Source: a virus (lineage: Duplodnaviria; Heunggongvirae; Uroviricota; Caudoviricetes). From it: 7,111 nt of DNA. The notes beneath the pieces are model-generated. The model was not told the origin of the DNA. It saw nothing but the letters and a program-made list of their open reading frames with translations, and searched no databases. Shown in pieces: positions 1-7,111 of this stretch. The stretch lies in the IMG/VR virus record IMGVR_UViG_2585427777_000007. One strand, written 5' to 3'. The position numbers and the translations under genes are program-made. Position 1 is the stretch's first letter, and the number at the start of each line of letters is the position of its first letter.

Positions 1-477
1 CCGGTGGATGACGCAGTCTCCCTGCTGACACGGGGTGGCAGACTGAGCTGTAAGTTTCGACTGTCAGGCGCACTGACCAACAACCAGTTCGGTCTGGGAA
101 TTTATCTGTATACCGATGTAGCGTTACCTGACGTCGTGGCGATGACCGGGACTGGTAACCCGTTCCTGATGTCGTTCTTCACCCAGACCACAGGCGGCAA
201 ACTGAATCTGATGCATCACAAGAAAGCCGGAAACACAAAGTTGGGCGAGTTCGGGAATTACAGTAACGACTGGCAGACGCTGGAGCTGGTGTTCACCGCC
301 GGCAGTGCCACGGTTACTCCGAAACTGAATGGAGTGGCTGGCCCGGCATTCCAGGTCATAAAAGACAGTCTGACACTGGGGCTGAATGCGCTGACGTTAA
401 CTGATATCACTAAAAATGCCGCGTACGGCGTCGATATCGGCAGCCTGGTGCTGGAAATCAATAATCCCGCAGCATAA
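1..477 (+). CDS. hypothetical protein, 5'-partial (frame open to window start); not recognisable as a P2 lysis or tail protein
   Basis: Reading frame is open from base 1 to TAA at 475-477 (ORF track calls GTG at 4). A 23-bp gap containing AGGAGA precedes the ATG of the next gene, so it is co-oriented and probably co-transcribed with the tail module. The translation is Gly/Thr/Asn/Leu-rich and protein-like, but I cannot place it in a family. Confidence 0.45.
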   Translation, partial: PVDDAVSLLTRGGRLSCKFRLSGALTNNQFGLGIYLYTDVALPDVVAMTGTGNPFLMSFFTQTTGGKLNLMHHKKAGNTKLGEFGNYSNDWQTLELVFTAGSATVTPKLNGVAGPAFQVIKDSLTLGLNALTLTDITKNAAYGVDIGSLVLEINNPAA

Positions 478-500
478 GGAAGAGCAGGAGAGCAAAACAG

Positions 501-968
501 ATGCTTAAGACAAACAGTCTGCGAGAGTCCATGCTTCATGGGTGTCGGTGGTGCCAGGCTAATCCCGAGAAATTCACCATTTTCGTGGAGAGCGGCAACA
601 TTGAAACGACCGGGGAAACGCCCTCGTTTGTTTACCGCTATCAGATGGTGATGTTTGTCATGGATTACGCCGGAGAGCTGGACGACCTCACGCTGCCGCT
701 GCTGGCGTGGTTATCCGAAAATCAGCCACAGTTGTTGCTCAACCCTGAGCGTAATCAGGACATCAAATTCTCCGCCGTTATCAATGACGATGACAGCGCC
801 GATCTCCTGTTTACGCTCCCCCTGCGGGAACGCGTTCGCGTCACGCGCAGCAGTCAGGGCACACCGCAGGCAGAACACCTGCCAGAGCCAAAACCCCGCC
901 TGCCATCTTCCGAAGGCGACTGGTCGCATATATTCCAGGATGTGACGTGGGGTGAAAGCGATGGATAA
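501..968 (+). CDS. R: phage tail completion protein, P2 gpR-like
   Basis: ATG at 501 with AGGAGAGCAAAACAG upstream. 155 aa, with a central ...LPLLAWLSENQP... segment as I recall in the gpR family. Sits immediately upstream of S-V-W-J-I-H in the canonical P2 order. Assignment is from gene order and motif recall, not a search. Confidence 0.7.
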   Translation: MLKTNSLRESMLHGCRWCQANPEKFTIFVESGNIETTGETPSFVYRYQMVMFVMDYAGELDDLTLPLLAWLSENQPQLLLNPERNQDIKFSAVINDDDSADLLFTLPLRERVRVTRSSQGTPQAEHLPEPKPRLPSSEGDWSHIFQDVTWGESDG

Positions 969-1596
969 GGCATTCACCCGCGTGGATGAAACCTTTGAGG
1001 CCATCCGCGACAGCCTGAATCAGCAGGCCATCAATAACATCGCCAGAAAGCTGGCACAGGATTTACGTCGCGCCCAGCAGGCACGTATCCGGTCACAGAA
1101 AGCGCCGGACGGGACCGCATGGACACCACGCAGACGCCGCGTAACCCGGATACAGGAGCGCATTCGCTTTATCTGGAATAACGAAGCACGCACGCTGAAA
1201 AACTGGCATCACGACACGGGGAAATACGGGCGAACCATTACCGGGTGGGATGAGGATAAAAACAGCATCCGCACGTTTTACCGGGATGACATCGACCGTT
1301 TTCTGGAAATACGCACCCGGCGCATCAACCAGGACAGCACAAAGCGCGTCCCCATGTTCGTAAAACTGCGCACCGCCCGCTACCTGAAAGCCCGTGCAGA
1401 TGCCTCCGGTGTGACGGTGGGTTACAGCGGCGTGGCCGCACGTATTGCACGCGTTCATCAGTTCGGTGAGCGCGATCAGGTTGCGCCGGGCATTTTCACC
1501 GATTACCCGGTACGTGAGCTGCTGGGTATCAGCCAGGCAGATGAGCGCCTGATTTATAACACGGTGCTGGGCCGGATTGCGGAGGCTGTACGGTGA
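961..1596 (+). CDS. S: phage virion morphogenesis / tail completion protein, P2 gpS-like
   Basis: ATG at 961 overlaps the R stop (ATGGATAA); the ORF track's alternative in-frame GTG is at 952. Motif RRAQQARIRSQKAPDGTAWTPRRRR matches the basic Q-rich/PDGT-W segment typical of the gpS family. Ends at TGA 1594-1596, overlapping the V start. Confidence 0.7.
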   Translation: MDKAFTRVDETFEAIRDSLNQQAINNIARKLAQDLRRAQQARIRSQKAPDGTAWTPRRRRVTRIQERIRFIWNNEARTLKNWHHDTGKYGRTITGWDEDKNSIRTFYRDDIDRFLEIRTRRINQDSTKRVPMFVKLRTARYLKARADASGVTVGYSGVAARIARVHQFGERDQVAPGIFTDYPVRELLGISQADERLIYNTVLGRIAEAVR

Positions 1597-2174
1597 GCGC
1601 AGAACTCATGCGACTGCTGAGCAACATCATCCGCACCGGGATCATCTCTGAAGTTGATGAGAAGTCCTGGCGCGTGCGCGTTCGCAGCGGCGAACTGGAA
1701 ACAGGCTGGTTGCGCTGGAACACCACGCGCGCGGGAGCCTTCAATGTGTGGCTGCCGCCATCACCAGGCGAACAGGTGGTAATTGCCTGCATTGGCGGCA
1801 ACCCGGAAACCGCCATGATAATTGGCAGCCTGTGGAGTGATGCCAGTCCGGCCCCCGGCAAAAGCCTGAAAGAAATCGTGGTCAGCGCGCCGGATGGCGC
1901 GGTGTTCCGCTACGACGCAGACGCTGGCGCACTGAGCGCCAGCGGCATGAAAACAGCCACCCTGCAGGCATCCGTCAGCGTGACATTGGATACGCCCGTC
2001 GTGGAATGCACAAACCTTCTGAGAACAGCGACGCTTGACGTCACAAAAGGGGGAAAGATGAGCGGCAATATCACGCACAGCGGCGGCAATTTCACCTCAA
2101 ACGGTATCACAGTGCATACGCATAAACACGGTGGCGTTAAAGGTGGCAGCGATTCGACAGGAGGCCCGCAGTGA
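1593..2174 (+). CDS. V: baseplate assembly protein V (central spike/hub), P2 gpV-like
   Basis: GTG at 1593 overlaps the S stop (GTGA), with GGAGG 8 bp upstream. N-terminal ...IRTGII...W..W.T.RAG... and C-terminal ...KGGKMSGNITHSGGNFTSNGITVHTHKHGG... match the conserved gpV spike pattern. Lies directly before W-J-I. Confidence 0.85.
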   Translation: MSAELMRLLSNIIRTGIISEVDEKSWRVRVRSGELETGWLRWNTTRAGAFNVWLPPSPGEQVVIACIGGNPETAMIIGSLWSDASPAPGKSLKEIVVSAPDGAVFRYDADAGALSASGMKTATLQASVSVTLDTPVVECTNLLRTATLDVTKGGKMSGNITHSGGNFTSNGITVHTHKHGGVKGGSDSTGGPQ

Positions 2175-2521
2175 CAACCCGCTACACAGGAATGAATCCG
2201 GACGGGACGGGAAACCTGAACGATACGGAGCACCTGAAACAGTCAGTCAGGGACATCCTGACCACCCCGCTGGCCAGCCGGGTTATGCGACGGGAATATG
2301 GCAGCCTTGTACCTGATTTGATTGACGAACCCATGAATAACACCACGCGTCTGCAATGCATGAGTGCTGCCGTGATTGCGCTGACACGATGGGAACCCCG
2401 CATTGCCCTGGACGCCATCGACGTTGTCTGGAAGGCAGGAGGCCGCGCCGGGGTGACGCTGTCGGGCACTGTCATGCAGACCATGCAGAATGTTGAGTTA
2501 ACCATCACGCTGAGGGAGTAA
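2171..2521 (+). CDS. W: baseplate protein W (GPW/gp25 family)
   Basis: GTG at 2171 overlaps the V stop (GTGA), with AGGAGG upstream. 116 aa. N-terminus MTTRYTGMN...DILTTPLASRVMRREYGSL closely resembles P2 gpW as recalled. Confidence 0.85.
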   Translation: MTTRYTGMNPDGTGNLNDTEHLKQSVRDILTTPLASRVMRREYGSLVPDLIDEPMNNTTRLQCMSAAVIALTRWEPRIALDAIDVVWKAGGRAGVTLSGTVMQTMQNVELTITLRE

Positions 2522-2524
2522 ATC

Positions 2525-3421
2525 ATGCCTGCTGTTGACCTTTCCCAGTTACCGGAACCCGCCATCATCGCGAAGCCTGATTTTGAGGCAATTCTGGCTG
2601 ACACAAAGGCCATGATGATTGCGTCCTATCCTGCCGAACAGCGTGAAGCCGTCTCCGCCGCGCTGGAGCTGGAATCGGAACCCCTGAACGTTATCGCTCA
2701 AACCATGTCTTTTCGTGAAATGCTGTTACGCCAGCGGGTCAATGAGGGGGCACGCGCCTGCATGTTAAGCCACAGCGCCGGGACAGACCTGGACAACCTC
2801 GCGGGCAATATGAACACAAAGCGCCTGACCATCACTCCGGCAACAGATACCACCGACGCAGTGATGGAAAGTGACACCTCGCTGAGACTGCGGGCGCAGC
2901 GGGCGTACGATGGCCTGAGTGTTGCTGGCCCGTCAGGTGCATACGAGTATTTTGCCCGCAGCGCCAGCGGTCTGGTGCGTGATGCGCGGGCTATCAGTCC
3001 GTCTCCGGCAAATGTGACGGTTTCCATCCTGTCCACTGAAGGCGACGGCACAGCAACGGAGGCGTTGCTTAATACCGTTCGCGCCGTTCTGAATGCAGAG
3101 GATACCCGCCCGGTGGCCGACCGCCTTACTGTACAGAGCGCCAGAATCGTGACATGGCGGCTGAATGCAAAACTGTACTTTTACCCCGGCCCGGAATCCG
3201 AACCTATTCTGGCGGCGGCTGAATCGTCGTTCAGGAAGTGGCTGGCTGAGCAGGGGCTTATCGGTCAGGACGTGGCGTTGTCCGCCATTGCTGCCGCACT
3301 GCATGTGCACGGTGTGCAACGCGTGGAGATAATCGAACCCACACAGAATATGGCCATCAGCGACATACAGGCGGCGCGCTGTGAGTCATTCACCATCAGC
3401 GAAGGTGGACGCAATGAGTAA
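2525..3421 (+). CDS. J: baseplate assembly protein J (wedge)
   Basis: ATG at 2525 with GAGGGAG 7 bp upstream. 298 aa. Conserved segments (MPAVDLSQLPEP..., ...MESDTSLRLRAQRAYDGLSVAGPSGAY..., ...RPVADRLTVQSA..., ...HVHGVQRVEI...) match the gpJ family. Confidence 0.85.
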   Translation: MPAVDLSQLPEPAIIAKPDFEAILADTKAMMIASYPAEQREAVSAALELESEPLNVIAQTMSFREMLLRQRVNEGARACMLSHSAGTDLDNLAGNMNTKRLTITPATDTTDAVMESDTSLRLRAQRAYDGLSVAGPSGAYEYFARSASGLVRDARAISPSPANVTVSILSTEGDGTATEALLNTVRAVLNAEDTRPVADRLTVQSARIVTWRLNAKLYFYPGPESEPILAAAESSFRKWLAEQGLIGQDVALSAIAAALHVHGVQRVEIIEPTQNMAISDIQAARCESFTISEGGRNE

Positions 3422-4022
3422 TTCGTTGTTACCACCATCAGCCAGCAATTTCATGCGTTGTGCCGAAGCCGTCGGAACACGCATTACAGACATTCCGGTA
3501 GACCTCAACACGTTGTGGTCGCCGGACACCTGCCCGGTGCATCTGCTGCCTTATCTCGCCTGGGCGTTTTCCGTTGACCGCTGGGATCGCAACTGGCCGG
3601 AAGAGACAAAGCGACAGGTAATTCGTGATGCATGGCTGATACACCGACACAAAGGGACCATCAGCGCACTGCGAAGAGCCGTGGAGCCTCTCGGCTACCT
3701 GATTGAAGTAAAGGAGTGGTGGCAACTCAATGAGGAGCCTGGGACATTTCGCATTGTTGTCGGAGTACTTGATCAGGGCATCACCGATGAAATGTATCAG
3801 GAACTTGAGCGCCTTATTGCGGATGCAAAACCAGTAAGTCGCCATCTGACGGGGCTGGCGATCAGCCTGAGTGTGAACGGAAAGATTTTCGTTGGTACGG
3901 GATGCTATTACGGCGACGCCCTGACGGTTTATCCCTACACCCCGGAGTCCATTATTGTCGAAGGGGATTATTTCCCTGCCCCGGCCATTCATTTAATTGA
4001 TAATCTGAGAGTAAACGCATGA
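3414..4022 (+). CDS. I: tail/baseplate protein I
   Basis: The ORF track frame starts at GTG 3381, but the ATG at 3414 overlaps the J stop (ATGAGTAA) and gives an MSNSLLPP... N-terminus like P2 gpI. Conserved ...WSPDTCPVHLLPYLAWAFSVDRWD... and ...ERLIADAKPVSRHL... segments. Stop TGA 4020-4022 overlaps the H start. Confidence 0.8.
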   Translation: MSNSLLPPSASNFMRCAEAVGTRITDIPVDLNTLWSPDTCPVHLLPYLAWAFSVDRWDRNWPEETKRQVIRDAWLIHRHKGTISALRRAVEPLGYLIEVKEWWQLNEEPGTFRIVVGVLDQGITDEMYQELERLIADAKPVSRHLTGLAISLSVNGKIFVGTGCYYGDALTVYPYTPESIIVEGDYFPAPAIHLIDNLRVNA

Positions 4023-5833
4023 CAGTGAAATACTACGCCATTCTGACTAATCAGGGCGCGGCACGACTGGCTAACGCGACGATGCTCGGCAGTAAGCTGA
4101 ATCTGACGCGAATGGCCGTTGGTGATGCAAATGGTGTGTTACCAACACCAGACCCTGCACAAACAAAACTGATTAACCAGAAACGCATTGCACCGCTGAA
4201 TCTTCTGAGTGTTGACCCTAACAATCAGAGCCAGATTATTGCGGAGCAAATCATCCCTGAAAGCGAGGGAGGATTCTGGATCCGTGAGATTGGTCTTTAT
4301 GATGATAAAGGTGTACTCATTGCGGTGGCAAACTGCCCGGAAACGTACAAACCGCAGTTGCAGGAAGGCAGTGGACGCACCCAGACTATCCGCATGATTC
4401 TGGTTGTCACGAACACCGAAGCCATCACGCTGAAAATCGACCCGTCTGTGGTTCTGGCAACCCGCAAATATGTGGATGATAAAATATCAGAGCACGAGCA
4501 GTCACGACGTCACCCGGACGCCTCGCTGACCGCAAAAGGCTTTGTTCAACTTAGCAGCGCCACCAACAGCACCTCTGAAACGCTGGCCGCAACACCGAAA
4601 GCGGTTAAGGCTGCATATGACCTGGCTAACGGGAAATATACCGCTCAGGATGCGACTACGGCACGAAAAGGCCTTGTTCAACTCAGTAGCGCCACCAACA
4701 GCACCTCTGAAACGCTGGCCGCCACACCGAAAGCGGTTAAGGCTGCATATGACCTGGCTAACGGGAAATATACCGCTCAGGATGCGACTACGGCACGAAA
4801 AGGCCTTGTTCAACTCAGTAGCGCCACCAACAGCACCTCTGAAACGCTGGCCGCCACACCGAAAGCGGTTAAGGCTGCATATGACCTGGCTAACGGGAAA
4901 TATACCGCTCAGGATGCGACTACGGCACGAAAAGGCCTTGTTCAACTCAGTAGCGCCACCAACAGCACCTCTGAAACGCTGGCCGCCACACCGAAAGCGG
5001 TTAAGGCTGCATATGACCTGGCTAACGGGAAATATACCGCTCAGGATGCGACTACGGCACGAAAAGGCCTTGTTCAACTCAGTAGCGCCACCAACAGCAC
5101 CTCTGAAACGCTGGCCGCCACACCGAAAGCGGTCAAGGCTGCATACGATCTGGCAAACGGAAAACAACCGGCAGATGCCACGCTCACTGCTCTGGCAGGA
5201 CTTGCCACTGCAGCAGATCGGTTGCCTTATTTTACCGGAGCAGACCGCGCAGCGCTGGCAACCCTTACAGCTATTGGTCGCGCTATTATCGCTAAGGGCA
5301 GTATAAAAGATGTCCTCAATTACCTTGGTTTAGGAGAAGGCTCGGCGCTACCCGTTGGTGTGCCTGTTCCGTGGCCCACCGCCACACCGCCAGCAGGCTG
5401 GTTAAAGTGCGACGGGCGCGCCTTTACAAAAGAACAATATCCTGTTCTGGCCAGAGCCTACCCGACCCTCCGTCTTCCTGATTTACGCGGTGAGTTTATC
5501 CGTGGATGGGACGACGGGCGCAAAGTTGATACGAGGCGTTCATTGCTAAGTGGTCAGGCTGCAACATTTATTCGTACAGCTTTGCAGGATTATTACGGTT
5601 ACGATCTGAATACTAATGTCAAAGTAGGTATCGCTTTTGCTACTGCTGATTCTGTTATAACCGTTGGAAACCCAGCTAATCCTAAAGCAGGAAATAATAG
5701 CGATTATGTTCCTGCATCAGCAGATAACTCCATAATGGGTACTCAAAGGACAGCGGAGGATAATTTTACCGGGGCATGGATATCAATGCGCCCCCGCAAT
5801 GTTGCGTTTAATTACATCGTAAGGGCCGCATAA
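4019..5833 (+). CDS. H: tail fibre protein H (P2-like N-terminal anchor, tandem fibre repeats, tail-collar-like domain, variable receptor-binding tip)
   Basis: ATG at 4019 overlaps the I stop (ATGA). 604 aa. N-terminal ~160 aa (...MAVGDANGVLPTPD...GGFWIREIGLYDDKGVLIAVAN...EHEQSRRHPDASLTAKGF) match the P2 gpH constant region. Then five copies of ...VQLSSATNSTSETLAATPKAVKAAYDLANGK..., the phage tail fibre repeat. The C-terminal ...PAGWLKCDGRAFTKEQYPVLARAYP...LPDLRGEFIRGWDDGR resembles a tail-collar domain, followed by a divergent tip ending RPRNVAFNYIVRAA. Confidence 0.9.
   Translation: MTVKYYAILTNQGAARLANATMLGSKLNLTRMAVGDANGVLPTPDPAQTKLINQKRIAPLNLLSVDPNNQSQIIAEQIIPESEGGFWIREIGLYDDKGVLIAVANCPETYKPQLQEGSGRTQTIRMILVVTNTEAITLKIDPSVVLATRKYVDDKISEHEQSRRHPDASLTAKGFVQLSSATNSTSETLAATPKAVKAAYDLANGKYTAQDATTARKGLVQLSSATNSTSETLAATPKAVKAAYDLANGKYTAQDATTARKGLVQLSSATNSTSETLAATPKAVKAAYDLANGKYTAQDATTARKGLVQLSSATNSTSETLAATPKAVKAAYDLANGKYTAQDATTARKGLVQLSSATNSTSETLAATPKAVKAAYDLANGKQPADATLTALAGLATAADRLPYFTGADRAALATLTAIGRAIIAKGSIKDVLNYLGLGEGSALPVGVPVPWPTATPPAGWLKCDGRAFTKEQYPVLARAYPTLRLPDLRGEFIRGWDDGRKVDTRRSLLSGQAATFIRTALQDYYGYDLNTNVKVGIAFATADSVITVGNPANPKAGNNSDYVPASADNSIMGTQRTAEDNFTGAWISMRPRNVAFNYIVRAA
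4535..5164 (+). repeat. tandem array of 132-bp (44-codon) repeats inside H: 4 full copies plus 1 truncated/diverged copy
   Basis: Unit starts at 4535, 4667, 4799, 4931 and 5063. Copies 2-4 (4667-5062) appear identical base for base by eye. Copy 1 differs at about 4 positions. Copy 5 diverges after about 85 bp and runs into unique sequence. Confidence 0.9.
5313..5338. other. candidate site-specific invertase crossover site (hix/gix/cix-like) at the H constant/variable junction
   Basis: TCCTCAATTACC TT GGTTTAGGAGAA is a 26-bp imperfect palindrome around an ACC-TT-GGT core. It resembles, from memory, the AAACC-NN-GGTTT core of Din-family sites, and it sits exactly where cassette homology begins. 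Not verified against a consensus. Confidence 0.3.
5327..5525 (+). repeat. direct repeat copy 1 (about 200 bp, roughly 90% nt identity to 5841-6040): conserved 5' part of the tail-fibre C-terminal cassette
   Basis: Aligns to 5841-6040 with scattered mismatches, from ggtttaggagaaggctcggcgct... through ...ggatgggacgacgggcgcaa. Encodes GEGSALPVGVPVPWPTATPPAGWL...LPDLRGEFIRGWDDGRK in both copies. Confidence 0.85.
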
Positions 5834-5852
5834 AAACGTTGGTTTGGGGGAA
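5827..5852. other. candidate site-specific invertase crossover site, second copy, immediately after the H stop codon
   Basis: CGCATAAAAACG TT GGTTTGGGGGAA has an AAAAAC-G-TT-GGTTT core at the start of the second cassette, in the same orientation as the 5313-5338 site. Not verified against a consensus. Confidence 0.3.
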
Positions 5853-6040
5853 GGCTCGGCGCTGCCCGTTGGTGTACCTGTTCCGTGGCCCACTGCCACA
5901 CCGCCAGCAGGCTGGTTACAGTGCAACGGAGCTACGTTCACCAAAGAACAATATCCTGTTCTGGCCAGAGTCTACCCGACCCTCCGTCTTCCCGATTTGC
6001 GCGGTGAGTTTATCCGTGGATGGGACGACGGGCGCAAGAT
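5841..6040 (+). repeat. direct repeat copy 2 (partner of 5327-5525)
   Basis: Same alignment as above. The offset between copies is 514 bp, so recombination between them would fuse the second cassette to H in frame. Confidence 0.85.
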
Positions 6041-6317
6041 TGACGAGGGGCGTAAGTTGCTTTCATGGCAGAAAGGTACACTGGTCGGCGGTCATGACGA
6101 TAACGATTCTTCGCTTGATATCTCGTACATGAGTAACGGAAATAATATTGACTATGGCGGCGATAAGGTGTTTGCGGGGAATTACCGTAGCGATTATTTG
6201 TGGTACGTAATTCTGGGTGGAACAAACAGTCGCGCAAAAGCCGAATTAAACGGAGCATTCTTTAACATAACCCGCCCCCGCAATATCGCGTTTAACTATA
6301 TCGTGAGGGCGGCGTGA
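5844..6317 (+). CDS. silent alternative tail-fibre C-terminal cassette (tail-collar-like domain plus different variable tip); no ATG or RBS
   Basis: Frame is open from 5823 to TGA 6315-6317; the ORF track's start at 5844 is a TTG with no Shine-Dalgarno. The first ~65 aa are about 90% identical to H residues ~441-505, the middle is unrelated, and the last 14 aa (RPRNIAFNYIVRAA) are again conserved. It is in a different frame from H, so it cannot be made by read-through. Confidence 0.7.
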   Translation: MGEGSALPVGVPVPWPTATPPAGWLQCNGATFTKEQYPVLARVYPTLRLPDLRGEFIRGWDDGRKIDEGRKLLSWQKGTLVGGHDDNDSSLDISYMSNGNNIDYGGDKVFAGNYRSDYLWYVILGGTNSRAKAELNGAFFNITRPRNIAFNYIVRAA

Positions 6318-6323
6318 TACCGT

Positions 6324-6938
6324 TCAACTGGCAAGTGCCAGTGGCGCTTCCGGCCAGCTGATTTCAGGTGCCGTGCTGATATCCAGTGCGTTCAGCTCGT
6401 CGATATAATCCAGCACGGCGTTCAGTTTTGCCGTTTCTTCTGGTGTCAGACTGCGACCAGCACGCAGTTTGAGGTTGATAAGATCGACTGACGCCATCGC
6501 CTGTTTCACCCGTTGCTGGCGTTGCTGTCTGGCAACCTCCAGTTCTGCGGCTCGCTGCCGTTCAGTATCGGTTACCCACGCCTCACCGTTCCAGGTATCC
6601 CATGGCGTGGCTGGCTGTTTTGTGGTGGTGTCCGCCGGGTAATCACCCGGTTGGGTAATCAGAACAGGGTTACCGTTCTCCGTGCTGTATACCGTCTCGC
6701 CGCGGTGATCAGGCACATGCTCCCACCCGTTCAGCGTGGCAGTCCGGCAAACCACGTAACCCGAAATTGCCTCCGGCGGTGCATCGGCGCACGAATGTGC
6801 CGGAGTACCCACCCCAAGGGCGAGATACTCCACAGAGGATGAGGTGTATTCCCGGGTTTCCTCGTCATAGTGATATACAGTGATATCGCCCGCTACAGTG
6901 GCGATACCGTTTTCATCCAGAACTGCAGTGTTACTCAT
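6324..6938 (-). CDS. tail fibre assembly protein (Tfa chaperone, lambda Tfa / P2 gpG family)
   Basis: 204 aa. ATG is the complement of 6936-6938, with GAGGG 7 nt upstream on the - strand. C-terminal ...YIDELNALDISTAPEISWPEAPL and central ...W.HV.DHRGETVY.....NGEAWVTDTE... parallel lambda Tfa (...RVDTSTAPDIEWPAVP; ...DHRGKTVY...WNGTAWVKDTE) as recalled. Convergent with the silent cassette, with only 6 bp between the two stop codons. Confidence 0.85.
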   Translation of the reverse strand: MSNTAVLDENGIATVAGDITVYHYDEETREYTSSSVEYLALGVGTPAHSCADAPPEAISGYVVCRTATLNGWEHVPDHRGETVYSTENGNPVLITQPGDYPADTTTKQPATPWDTWNGEAWVTDTERQRAAELEVARQQRQQRVKQAMASVDLINLKLRAGRSLTPEETAKLNAVLDYIDELNALDISTAPEISWPEAPLALAS

Positions 6939-7111
6939 TAAACTGCCCTCACAATGTAATTAAGTGCAATGCTACGGGGTCTGACAGTGATACCCTTCGC
7001 ATACCCGCTTCTGATAGAGGTCAGAATAGTAGCCTGCATACCATTGTCTGACATTGCCATGACAGGATTGCTGAATGTTGTCCCGTCCGGCATTTTAAAG
7101 CTGCCCTCACG
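6938..7111 (-). CDS. 3' end of a third tail-fibre C-terminal cassette (- strand), 5'-partial at window edge; stop overlaps the Tfa start (TAATG)
   Basis: The - strand frame is open from the window edge to TAA (complement of 6938-6940) and ends ...GITVRPRSIALNYIVRAV, homologous to the last 14 aa of H and of the silent cassette. There is an internal ATG at the complement of 7091-7093. It lies directly upstream of, and is coupled to, the - strand Tfa. Confidence 0.5.
   Translation of the reverse strand, partial: REGSFKMPDGTTFSNPVMAMSDNGMQATILTSIRSGYAKGITVRPRSIALNYIVRAV

Follow-up and report, generated by a model that had tools for sequence, protein, structure and literature searches.

Copy-number polymorphism and concerted change of an in-frame 132-bp tandem repeat in a P2 gpH-type tail-fibre gene of Escherichia coli prophages

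A tail-fibre gene whose shaft region contains long, almost identical tandem units raises the question of whether such an array is real and, if so, how its units change in number, why they remain alike and what their turnover means for the fibre. We addressed this question in a 7,111-bp stretch of prophage DNA, which was analysed as a whole and is referred to here as the window. The 132-bp (44-aa) in-frame tandem array was confirmed. Tandem Repeats Finder reported one array in the window, at 4534-5164, with a period of 132, 4.8 copies, 98% matches, no indels and a score of 1199, in agreement with the four full copies and one partial copy proposed in an earlier note on this DNA. Counting by register places the unit starts at 4534, 4666, 4798, 4930 and 5062. 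Unit 1 (4534-4665, plus strand), a boundary unit, differs from the internal units at exactly four positions (4541, 4552, 4555 and 4591), where the same note had estimated about four; three of these differences are synonymous, and the fourth changes the amino acid (L to F). The internal units 2, 3 and 4 (4666-5061, plus strand, 396 nt) show no differences among their three 132-nt copies, exactly as the note had read them. It is also these units whose number differs between relatives and whose changes are concerted. Unit 5 (5062-5164, plus strand), the second boundary unit, runs into the linker: its initial 72 nt equal those of the internal units, five silent differences follow, and similarity is lost after about 5164. 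Because its initial 34 residues are identical, it forms a full fifth Pfam repeat at the protein level. The tract from 4592 to 5133 (542 nt) is perfectly periodic at 132, each base from 4592 to 5001 being equal to the base 132 positions further on, and would provide the substrate for out-of-register pairing. Since the units are identical across hundreds of bases, the array is not a chance pattern.

With regard to the gene that holds the array in frame (4019-5833, plus strand, 604 aa), its domain architecture and surroundings identify it as the P2 gpH-type tail fibre of an E. coli P2-like prophage. Pfam matches comprise PF12571 (aa 1-150, 207.4 bits, spanning the full profile 1-150), five copies of PF03406 and PF07484 (aa 447-494). 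The first of these corresponds to the predicted N-terminal baseplate-attachment domain (4019-4468, plus strand). PF03406 (Phage_fiber_2), which has a gathering score of 22 bits, matched with 331.5 bits (E 2.4e-101) in five stretches, the best of which aligned aa 169-209 with profile positions 1-41 of 42. The Tail_P2_I gene (3381-4022) directly precedes the H gene, with an ATGA overlap, and the matches in gene order are P2_Phage_GpR, Phage_tail_S, Phage_base_V/spike, GPW_gp25, Baseplate_J and Tail_P2_I, followed by H; relatives are annotated in the same R-S-V-W-J-I-H order. The H gene is 87.1% identical at the DNA level to P2 gene H (NC_001895) over query positions 451-1119, which correspond to 4469-5137 of the window, and the exact H protein is present in NCBI as 'phage tail fiber repeat family protein'. 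Architecture, synteny and DNA similarity thus back the placement of the array in the H shaft that had been suggested earlier.

P2 gpH (NP_046775.1) is the closest point of comparison. It shares the PF12571 N-terminus and the position after gpI in the V-W-J-I-H module, and the same 44-aa unit is found from about residue 173, the first P2 unit (KGFTQLSSATNSTSETLAATPKAVKAAYDLANGKYTAQDATTAR) being one residue off unit 1 of the window. P2 gpH has two units (positions 1566 and 1698 of its locus, L010), which correspond to the first and last units of the window, whereas the window has five. In P2, a fixed C-terminal tip is followed by gpG, whereas the tip in the window is of the collar type and appears to be one of several cassettes that can be inverted. 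Classical work on P2 H and on the shuffling of tail-fibre motifs is that of Haggard-Ljungquist (1992) and of Sandmeier (1992 and 1994).

The only solved structures matching one repeat unit by sequence are those of the Mu tail-fibre protein S (5yvq, 8ju3 and 9ki1), and the Mu cryo-EM model was built for the N-terminus only (PMC11915804). Sequence matches of the collar tip to solved structures were found for T4 gp37 and a short tail fibre. An AlphaFold2 monomer of the 604-aa protein, based on a 20-sequence alignment, gave a mean pLDDT of 46.3 and a pTM of 0.29, with most of the repeats below 50. Pfam matches of TPR_20 and ARM_TT21 to the repeat were rejected, as no single stretch passes; they reflect the low-complexity, Ala/Thr-rich composition of the unit.

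The number of units was found to vary among close relatives, defined here as E. coli prophages 97.6-99.4% identical over H gene query positions 1-1521. Five units are present in U13A, FDAARGOS_1077, 1450, MS10860 and U15A, although several five-unit genomes (U12A-U15A) share one study of origin and may not be independent; MS8345, AZ184 and 1434 have four units, and 300444 has three. A second lineage shows the same kind of change: BEN2908 (four units) and strain 746 (three units) are separated by a single indel of exactly 132 nt and three substitutions in 4.2 kb. Across 120 homologue clusters, three units were counted in 47, four in 43, five in 14, six in 15 and seven in one. Whatever their repeat number, 92 of the 120 clusters match aa 1-168 at 97% identity or more, and within this subset three (39), four (41), five (11) and seven (1) units occur. 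The comparison of related prophages that the earlier note had called for therefore revealed differences in whole units, and near-identical relatives with five, four or three units bear out its expectation of an unstable copy number. Among the papers searched, none dealt with copy-number polymorphism of PF03406 units in gpH.

Sequence change within the arrays was found to be concerted. Over positions 1-5331, the window and its closest relative, MS10860, differ at three sites only (4755, 4887 and 5019), all of which correspond to position 90 of the unit and affect each internal unit once. At position 58 of the unit, C is present in units 2-5 of the window, A in units 1-4 of FDAARGOS_1077, and a mosaic of A, C, A, A and C in U13A. 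In BEN2908 and strain 746, the internal units are identical inside each array, and 10 of 100 nt separate them from those of the window. When internal units of the window group are compared with those of the BEN2908 group, they show 9-11 differences per 100 nt, against none within arrays. The window unit differs from that of BEN2908 by 13 synonymous and 2 non-synonymous changes, and from that of P2 by 20 synonymous and 3 non-synonymous changes; at the amino-acid level, purifying selection on the unit is strong. As the differences between lineages are mostly synonymous, the identity within an array reflects recent homogenisation rather than constraint. Alignment of near-identical prophages thus establishes both copy-number polymorphism and concerted substitutions, and the single substitution common to all three internal units relative to MS10860 upholds the recent expansion or concerted evolution proposed earlier. 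Close relatives combining the same copy number with diverged third codon positions were also looked for, and none were found.

The explanation that we consider very probable is that the gene carries five PF03406 copies, of which the boundary units are old and the internal units young, the latter having been changed in number and homogenised by out-of-register pairing. The first and last units would be the old boundaries, and the internal units would be young copies that pairing between 132-bp units out of register repeatedly adds, removes and homogenises. This pairing could take the form of unequal crossing-over, with sister or co-resident copies as partners, or of replication slippage. Since a unit comprises 132 nt (44 codons), every gain or loss stays in frame, and the product would be a fibre protein longer or shorter by one 44-residue module per chain, the chains presumably being three, with the baseplate-binding N-terminus and the receptor-binding tip unaffected. 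We infer the mechanism of turnover, the trimeric state and the change of fibre length in fixed steps. Exact homology at the offset of one unit extends over 410 nt, well beyond the least that RecA-dependent recombination requires. In E. coli, tandem repeats lying close together are also reported by Lovett and colleagues to rearrange independently of RecA.

It is also possible, although unlikely, that the internal units were replaced by recombination with a co-resident fibre gene of a P2-like, Mu-like or P1-like element and not by slippage. Opportunities for such exchange exist: in E. coli genomes that match the H gene, the number of matching places is 2 at the median and 18 at most, with about 1,000 of them on plasmids, and the repeat unit is also present in P1-like phage-plasmids and in Mu S. 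In addition, a clustered 8-nt patch at 5332-5371 indicates that short-patch exchange between homologous cassettes occurs in the H gene. Nevertheless, exact single-unit indels with near-identical flanks are explained most simply as events inside the array, and no donor sequence was identified for the internal units.

Turnover inside the array, the explanation that we favour, would take place next to a second source of variation, as the adjacent tip cassettes are invertible, judging from the presence of the same segment in both orientations. A candidate DNA-inversion crossover site at 5320-5340 (plus strand; TTACCTTGGTTTAGGAGAAGG), unique in the window, marks the start of the exchangeable H tip cassette, and a related candidate site lies at 5835-5855 (AAACGTTGGTTTGGGGGAAGG); the right halves of the two sites are swapped in one related locus (L017). 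Homology between cassettes begins at the first site, as seen from the D1 repeat (5322-5547 versus 5836-6061). A promoterless alternative tip cassette of 157 aa with a collar domain (5844-6317, plus strand, PF07484) is 55% identical to the H tip and is annotated in relatives as a partial 'phage tail protein'. It is followed by the tail-fibre assembly (chaperone) gene (6324-6938, minus strand, PF02413), which is now inverted relative to H, and by the 3' end of a third tip cassette (6938-7111, minus strand), which is cut by the contig end and has a translation ending in RPRSIALNYIVRAV at its stop codon. The inverted repeat I1 pairs this third cassette with the 3' end of H. Positions 5834-7111 of the window correspond to L017 9442-8165 in reverse orientation, with 99.2% identity, and the assembly (tfa) gene is on the plus strand in four relatives (L001-L004) and on the minus strand in three (L005, L006 and L009). 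The serine invertase gene lies outside the window; it adjoins the cassettes in every relative with enough flank, annotated as 'recombinase family protein', and L017 10018-10617 matches Resolvase and HTH_7.

Given this neighbourhood, the number of shaft repeats could be imagined as a selected, fast 'length dial', a contingency mechanism by which the reach of the fibre would be adjusted to a thicker or thinner O-antigen or capsule layer and which, together with the invertase-driven tips, would provide two independent axes of variation, reach and receptor. If so, the number of units would be matched to the depth of the O-antigen or capsule of the host. We consider this quite improbable. The polymorphism is common, with three, four, five and seven units behind nearly the same N-terminus, the gains and losses are all in frame, the purifying selection on the unit is strong, and the H gene already has a dedicated device for variation in its inversion cassettes. 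However, neutral turnover of a tolerated spacer gives the same pattern, and many homologues in other genera, where the census found mostly 0-1 units, function with so few.

An assembly artefact, in which a draft assembler mis-counted identical units so that the true copy number in the strain differs, is very unlikely. The concern about assembly collapse or expansion raised in the earlier note was reasonable, as the window makes up a whole contig of 7,111 bp in a draft assembly (GCA_000713855.1) and, judging from the fragmentation of this draft, the 542-nt periodic tract probably exceeds the short reads likely to have been used. The concern probably does not hold for this array, however. An independent assembly (GCA_964048345.1, 5.15-Mb contig) contains the same 5,833 bases with only eight synonymous changes, all outside the array, which is identical base for base, and this makes an artefactual copy number improbable. 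Moreover, five-unit arrays are also present in at least five complete genomes, and the H ORF remains intact.

The array gives rise to long ORFs in two other frames, namely one of 254 aa at 4542-5306 on the plus strand, whose translation is itself 44-aa periodic, and an antisense one of 221 aa at 4502-5167 on the minus strand. Their occurrence on both strands had been noted earlier as an artefact, and we rejected them as overlapping genes because they exist only by virtue of the repeat unit itself lacking a stop codon in one extra plus-strand frame and one minus-strand frame. An old, stable array whose identity is held by selection on the nucleotide sequence, for instance through RNA structure or an overlapping gene, is extremely improbable: the two ORFs could pass for such genes, but they need only a stop-free single unit, while units of different lineages vary freely at synonymous sites, near-identical prophages differ in copy number and, in one lineage, every internal unit has the same substitution.

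Neither the repeat family nor the gene family nor the invertible tip cassettes are new, and the locus reveals no novel type of system. A single copy of the repeat is present in Mu S (residues about 116-148), compared with five in the window. In Mu S/S' (invertible G segment), in P1 S (invertible C segment) and in the multi-inversion 'shufflon' of the P2-like prophages of E. coli E2348/69 (PMC4272514), as here, a constant N-terminal part is combined with C-terminal cassettes that can be exchanged, and a tail-fibre assembly gene and a serine invertase lie nearby. While these systems vary the tip by site-specific inversion, the array in the window would vary the shaft by homology-driven repeat number. 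PF03406 ('Pf2') modules are also contained in lambda Stf and in the collagen-like tail fibres EPclA-D of EHEC prophages, and the lengths of EPclA-D differ between prophage copies by whole repeats, in multiples of 3 (collagen) and 7 (coiled coil) (PMC3368898). However, the variable parts of these proteins are collagen and coiled coil and not PF03406, and both their N-terminal domain (PF08400) and their type of phage are different. Intragenic repeats of variable number are found in the group B streptococcal alpha C protein and in the shaft of the adenovirus fibre; such surface proteins have long, near-identical in-frame units, a copy number that varies in close relatives, concerted evolution and an exposed rod that changes in length. 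As these proteins and their hosts are unrelated to the fibre described here, the likeness is an analogy of mechanism and not homology. The variation in repeat number is therefore real but ordinary biology, known in kind.

Taken with the two units of P2, the counts indicate that a P2-type fibre shaft tolerates 2 to 7 modules and that module number shifts in the time taken for a few substitutions to accumulate per 5 kb. These properties could be of use in the design of chimeric P2 fibres or tailocins and where prophage genes serve as strain markers. With regard to annotation, the array yields two spurious long ORFs and is a spot where short-read assemblies can mis-count units, and fibre proteins differing solely in unit number fall into separate protein clusters. 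Finally, other Enterobacterales were found to have arrays of three to four units in which the units are diverged (4-33 differences per 102 nt), so such arrays can also persist without homogenisation.

The window contains a single tandem array, at 4534-5164 (Tandem Repeats Finder: period 132, 4.8 copies, 98% matches, 0 indels), which is read in frame by the 604-aa ORF 4019-5833 (+) and whose unit translates as KGLVQLSSATNSTSETLAATPKAVKAAYDLANGKYTAQDATTAR. Counted in register on this strand, units 2, 3 and 4 (4666-5061) are mutually identical, whereas unit 1 (4534-4665) differs from them at four bases (4541, 4552, 4555 and 4591), three of the four changes being synonymous. Unit 5 (from 5062) is identical over its first 72 nt and then shows scattered silent changes, with similarity being lost after approximately 5164. 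The perfect 132-nt periodicity spans 542 nt (4592-5133). The earlier note, which had described units 2-4 as identical and unit 1 as deviating by about four bases, was exact to the base, and the artefactual alternative-frame ORFs it had claimed on both strands were found at 4542-5306 (+) and 4502-5167 (-). Their translations are also periodic, and they arise solely from the lack of stop codons within one unit in the two frames concerned.

With regard to the identity of the gene, three Pfam families are represented in the H ORF, with PF12571 (phage tail-collar fiber N-terminus) covering aa 1-150, PF03406 ("phage tail fibre repeat") matching five times with 331 bits, and the collar domain PF07484 lying at aa 447-494. 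It is preceded on its 5' side by P2-type gpR, gpS, gpV (spike), gpW, gpJ and gpI, in that order, and P2 gene H matches window 4469-5137 (H query 451-1119) with 87% identity in megablast. Judged by these similarities, the array-bearing gene is a gpH-type tail fiber of a P2-like prophage. The window corresponds to the complete contig JOST01000117.1 of the draft E. coli assembly GCA_000713855.1, and the identical protein is already present in NCBI as "phage tail fiber repeat family protein".

Complete E. coli genomes with prophages 97.6-99.4% identical over H query 1-1521 (window 4019-5539) were found to differ in the number of units, with five in U13A, FDAARGOS_1077, 1450, MS10860 and U15A, four in MS8345, AZ184 and 1434, and three in 300444. 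The closest relative, MS10860, is 99.6% identical over the 96% of the window that matches. Over positions 1-5331, only three bases differ (4755, 4887 and 5019), all at unit position 90 (T/C), once per internal unit; thus, a single mutation spread to all internal units before any other change occurred in 5.3 kb. At unit position 58, the window has C in units 2-5, FDAARGOS_1077 has A in units 1-4, and U13A has the mosaic A, C, A, A, C, which is the pattern expected of out-of-register exchanges. BEN2908 (four units) and strain 746 (three units) represent a second lineage, in which about 10% of unit positions differ from the window; their loci are separated by one exact 132-nt indel and three substitutions in 4.2 kb, and their internal units are mutually identical. 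The window unit shows 13 synonymous and 2 non-synonymous differences from BEN2908, and 20 and 3, respectively, from P2. As the differences between lineages are mainly synonymous, the protein sequence is constrained but the DNA is not, and the identity within the array must then stem from recency or homogenization. The recent expansion or concerted evolution proposed in the earlier note is supported by the position-90 triplet, the position-58 mosaic and this synonymous divergence, as is the proposed instability of copy number by the five, four and three units of near-identical prophages and by the 132-nt indel.

These comparisons show that, in near-identical prophages, whole units are gained and lost in frame and substitutions are concerted. 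Mispaired homologous exchange or replication slippage over the 410 nt of exact offset homology would account for gains, losses and concerted change alike. Such tandem repeats are rearranged in E. coli by RecA-dependent and RecA-independent routes. Similar fiber genes elsewhere in the cell could also act as exchange partners, and such exchange may contribute; similar places per matching genome number 2 at the median and 18 at the maximum. An assembly artefact behind the copy number, as feared in the earlier note, is unlikely, since an independently assembled 5.15-Mb contig (GCA_964048345.1, locus L017) has the same array and matches window 1-5833 except for eight bases, all synonymous and outside the array (5332-5371), and since several complete genomes also hold five units. 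As the unit lies in the reading frame, each exchange or slippage event would add or remove 44 residues per chain in the shaft, leaving the baseplate-binding N-terminus and the tip unchanged. The AlphaFold2 model of the monomer had a mean pLDDT of 46.3, too low for use, and among solved structures the unit has its sole relative in the Mu tail-fiber S, which contains one copy.

P2 gpH has only two units, which are the counterparts of the first and last units of the window. P2 unit 1 shows 14 differences per 100 nt from window unit 1 and 17 per 100 from the internal units, a small margin; BEN2908 unit 1 is 7 per 100 from P2 unit 1 and 19 per 100 from BEN2908 unit 2. This correspondence and these distances indicate an array of two old boundary units around young internal ones whose number varies. 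All of the best 120 homologue clusters have a period of 44 aa starting near residue 173, with three (47), four (43), five (14), six (15) or seven (1) units; where the N-terminus is at least 97% identical to that of the window, there are three (39), four (41), five (11) or seven (1). Internal units are usually identical at the amino-acid level in 4- and 5-unit proteins. A longer-linker variant, with units spaced by 168 nt (56 aa) rather than 132 nt (44 aa), was observed in some alleles, at loci L013, L014 (2148, 2316, 2484) and L009 (5280, 5448) and in protein P0074, both spacings sometimes occurring within one protein. Across 80 Enterobacterales loci, sampled at one genome per species and with complete ORFs in 72, most homologues have no unit or a single one. 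Buttiauxella, Kosakonia, Enterobacter, Dryocola and E. albertii hold arrays of 3-4 units, with 4-33 differences per 102 nt between adjacent units, so old, diverged arrays exist too; an identical adjacent pair was found at only one other locus of this sample. The fast-turnover form is found mainly in E. coli prophages, which are densely sampled.

The repeat family PF03406, the gene family gpH and the neighboring inversion system were already established. Units of this type are known from P2, Mu, P1-like and lambda Stf-type fibers, and prophage fiber proteins vary in length by whole repeat units (PMC3368898). What is added here is a clean comparative demonstration of what appears to be very quick gain, loss and homogenization of these internal units, of which no statement was found in the searchable literature; specialists would expect such turnover from long identical in-frame repeats. 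The array is real, its interpretation as unstable and recently homogenized is supported, and it is known in kind. Selected tuning of fiber length to the host surface layer is possible, though of low probability, and, if true, would be the one reading to raise the interest of the array.

On the 3' side of the array, H runs into a multi-cassette DNA-inversion region (window 5320-7111; L017 7816-9442), with candidate crossover sites at 5320-5340 and 5835-5855. It comprises the H tip cassette (5322-5833, +), a promoterless alternative (orphan) tip (5844-6317, +), a tail-fiber assembly gene (6324-6938, -) and the end of a third tip (6938-7111, -). Window 5834-7111 corresponds to L017 9442-8165 in inverted orientation, the two prophages being otherwise identical, and a serine invertase adjoins the cassettes in relatives. 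A four-state "shufflon" of this kind has been experimentally demonstrated in a P2-like prophage (PMC4272514). The contig ends within this region, possibly owing to mixed orientations in the sequenced culture. The eight synonymous bases (5332-5371; L017 7314-7353), the sole differences in 5.8 kb, cluster just past the candidate crossover site, and the right halves of the two candidate sites (…TTTAGGAGAAGG and …TTTGGGGGAAGG) have traded places between the two genomes, a pattern suggestive of short-patch exchange between cassettes at or beside the crossover point. In the captured orientation (5834-6938), H has no tail-fiber assembly gene after it on the plus strand; the only such gene in the window is on the minus strand, where its partner is another, truncated tip cassette, so in this state the expressed tip may be without an adjacent chaperone.

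Several relatives showed further peculiarities. In E. coli 1434 (L007, ~5280-5413), a 1-nt insertion in one internal unit (GACCTGG to GACCCTGG) breaks the frame, so that the gene is annotated in fragments; either a sequencing error in a homopolymer or genuine decay could explain the insertion. The cassette regions of this prophage and of that in AZ184 (L008) both carry an IS66-family insertion. The FDAARGOS_1077 prophage (L003) is defective, since gpR through gpJ are absent and a truncated DUF1737 pseudogene adjoins gpI (3259-4504); it retains an intact five-unit H gene and the inversion module. Finally, window 4-477 encodes the C-terminus of a 626-aa protein (L017 579-2459) with DUF1737 (weak match), SASA (sialate O-acetylesterase-like) and DUF6645, which lies between the lysis genes and gpR, is a non-standard P2 gene for that place, and may be cargo or an accessory tail gene.
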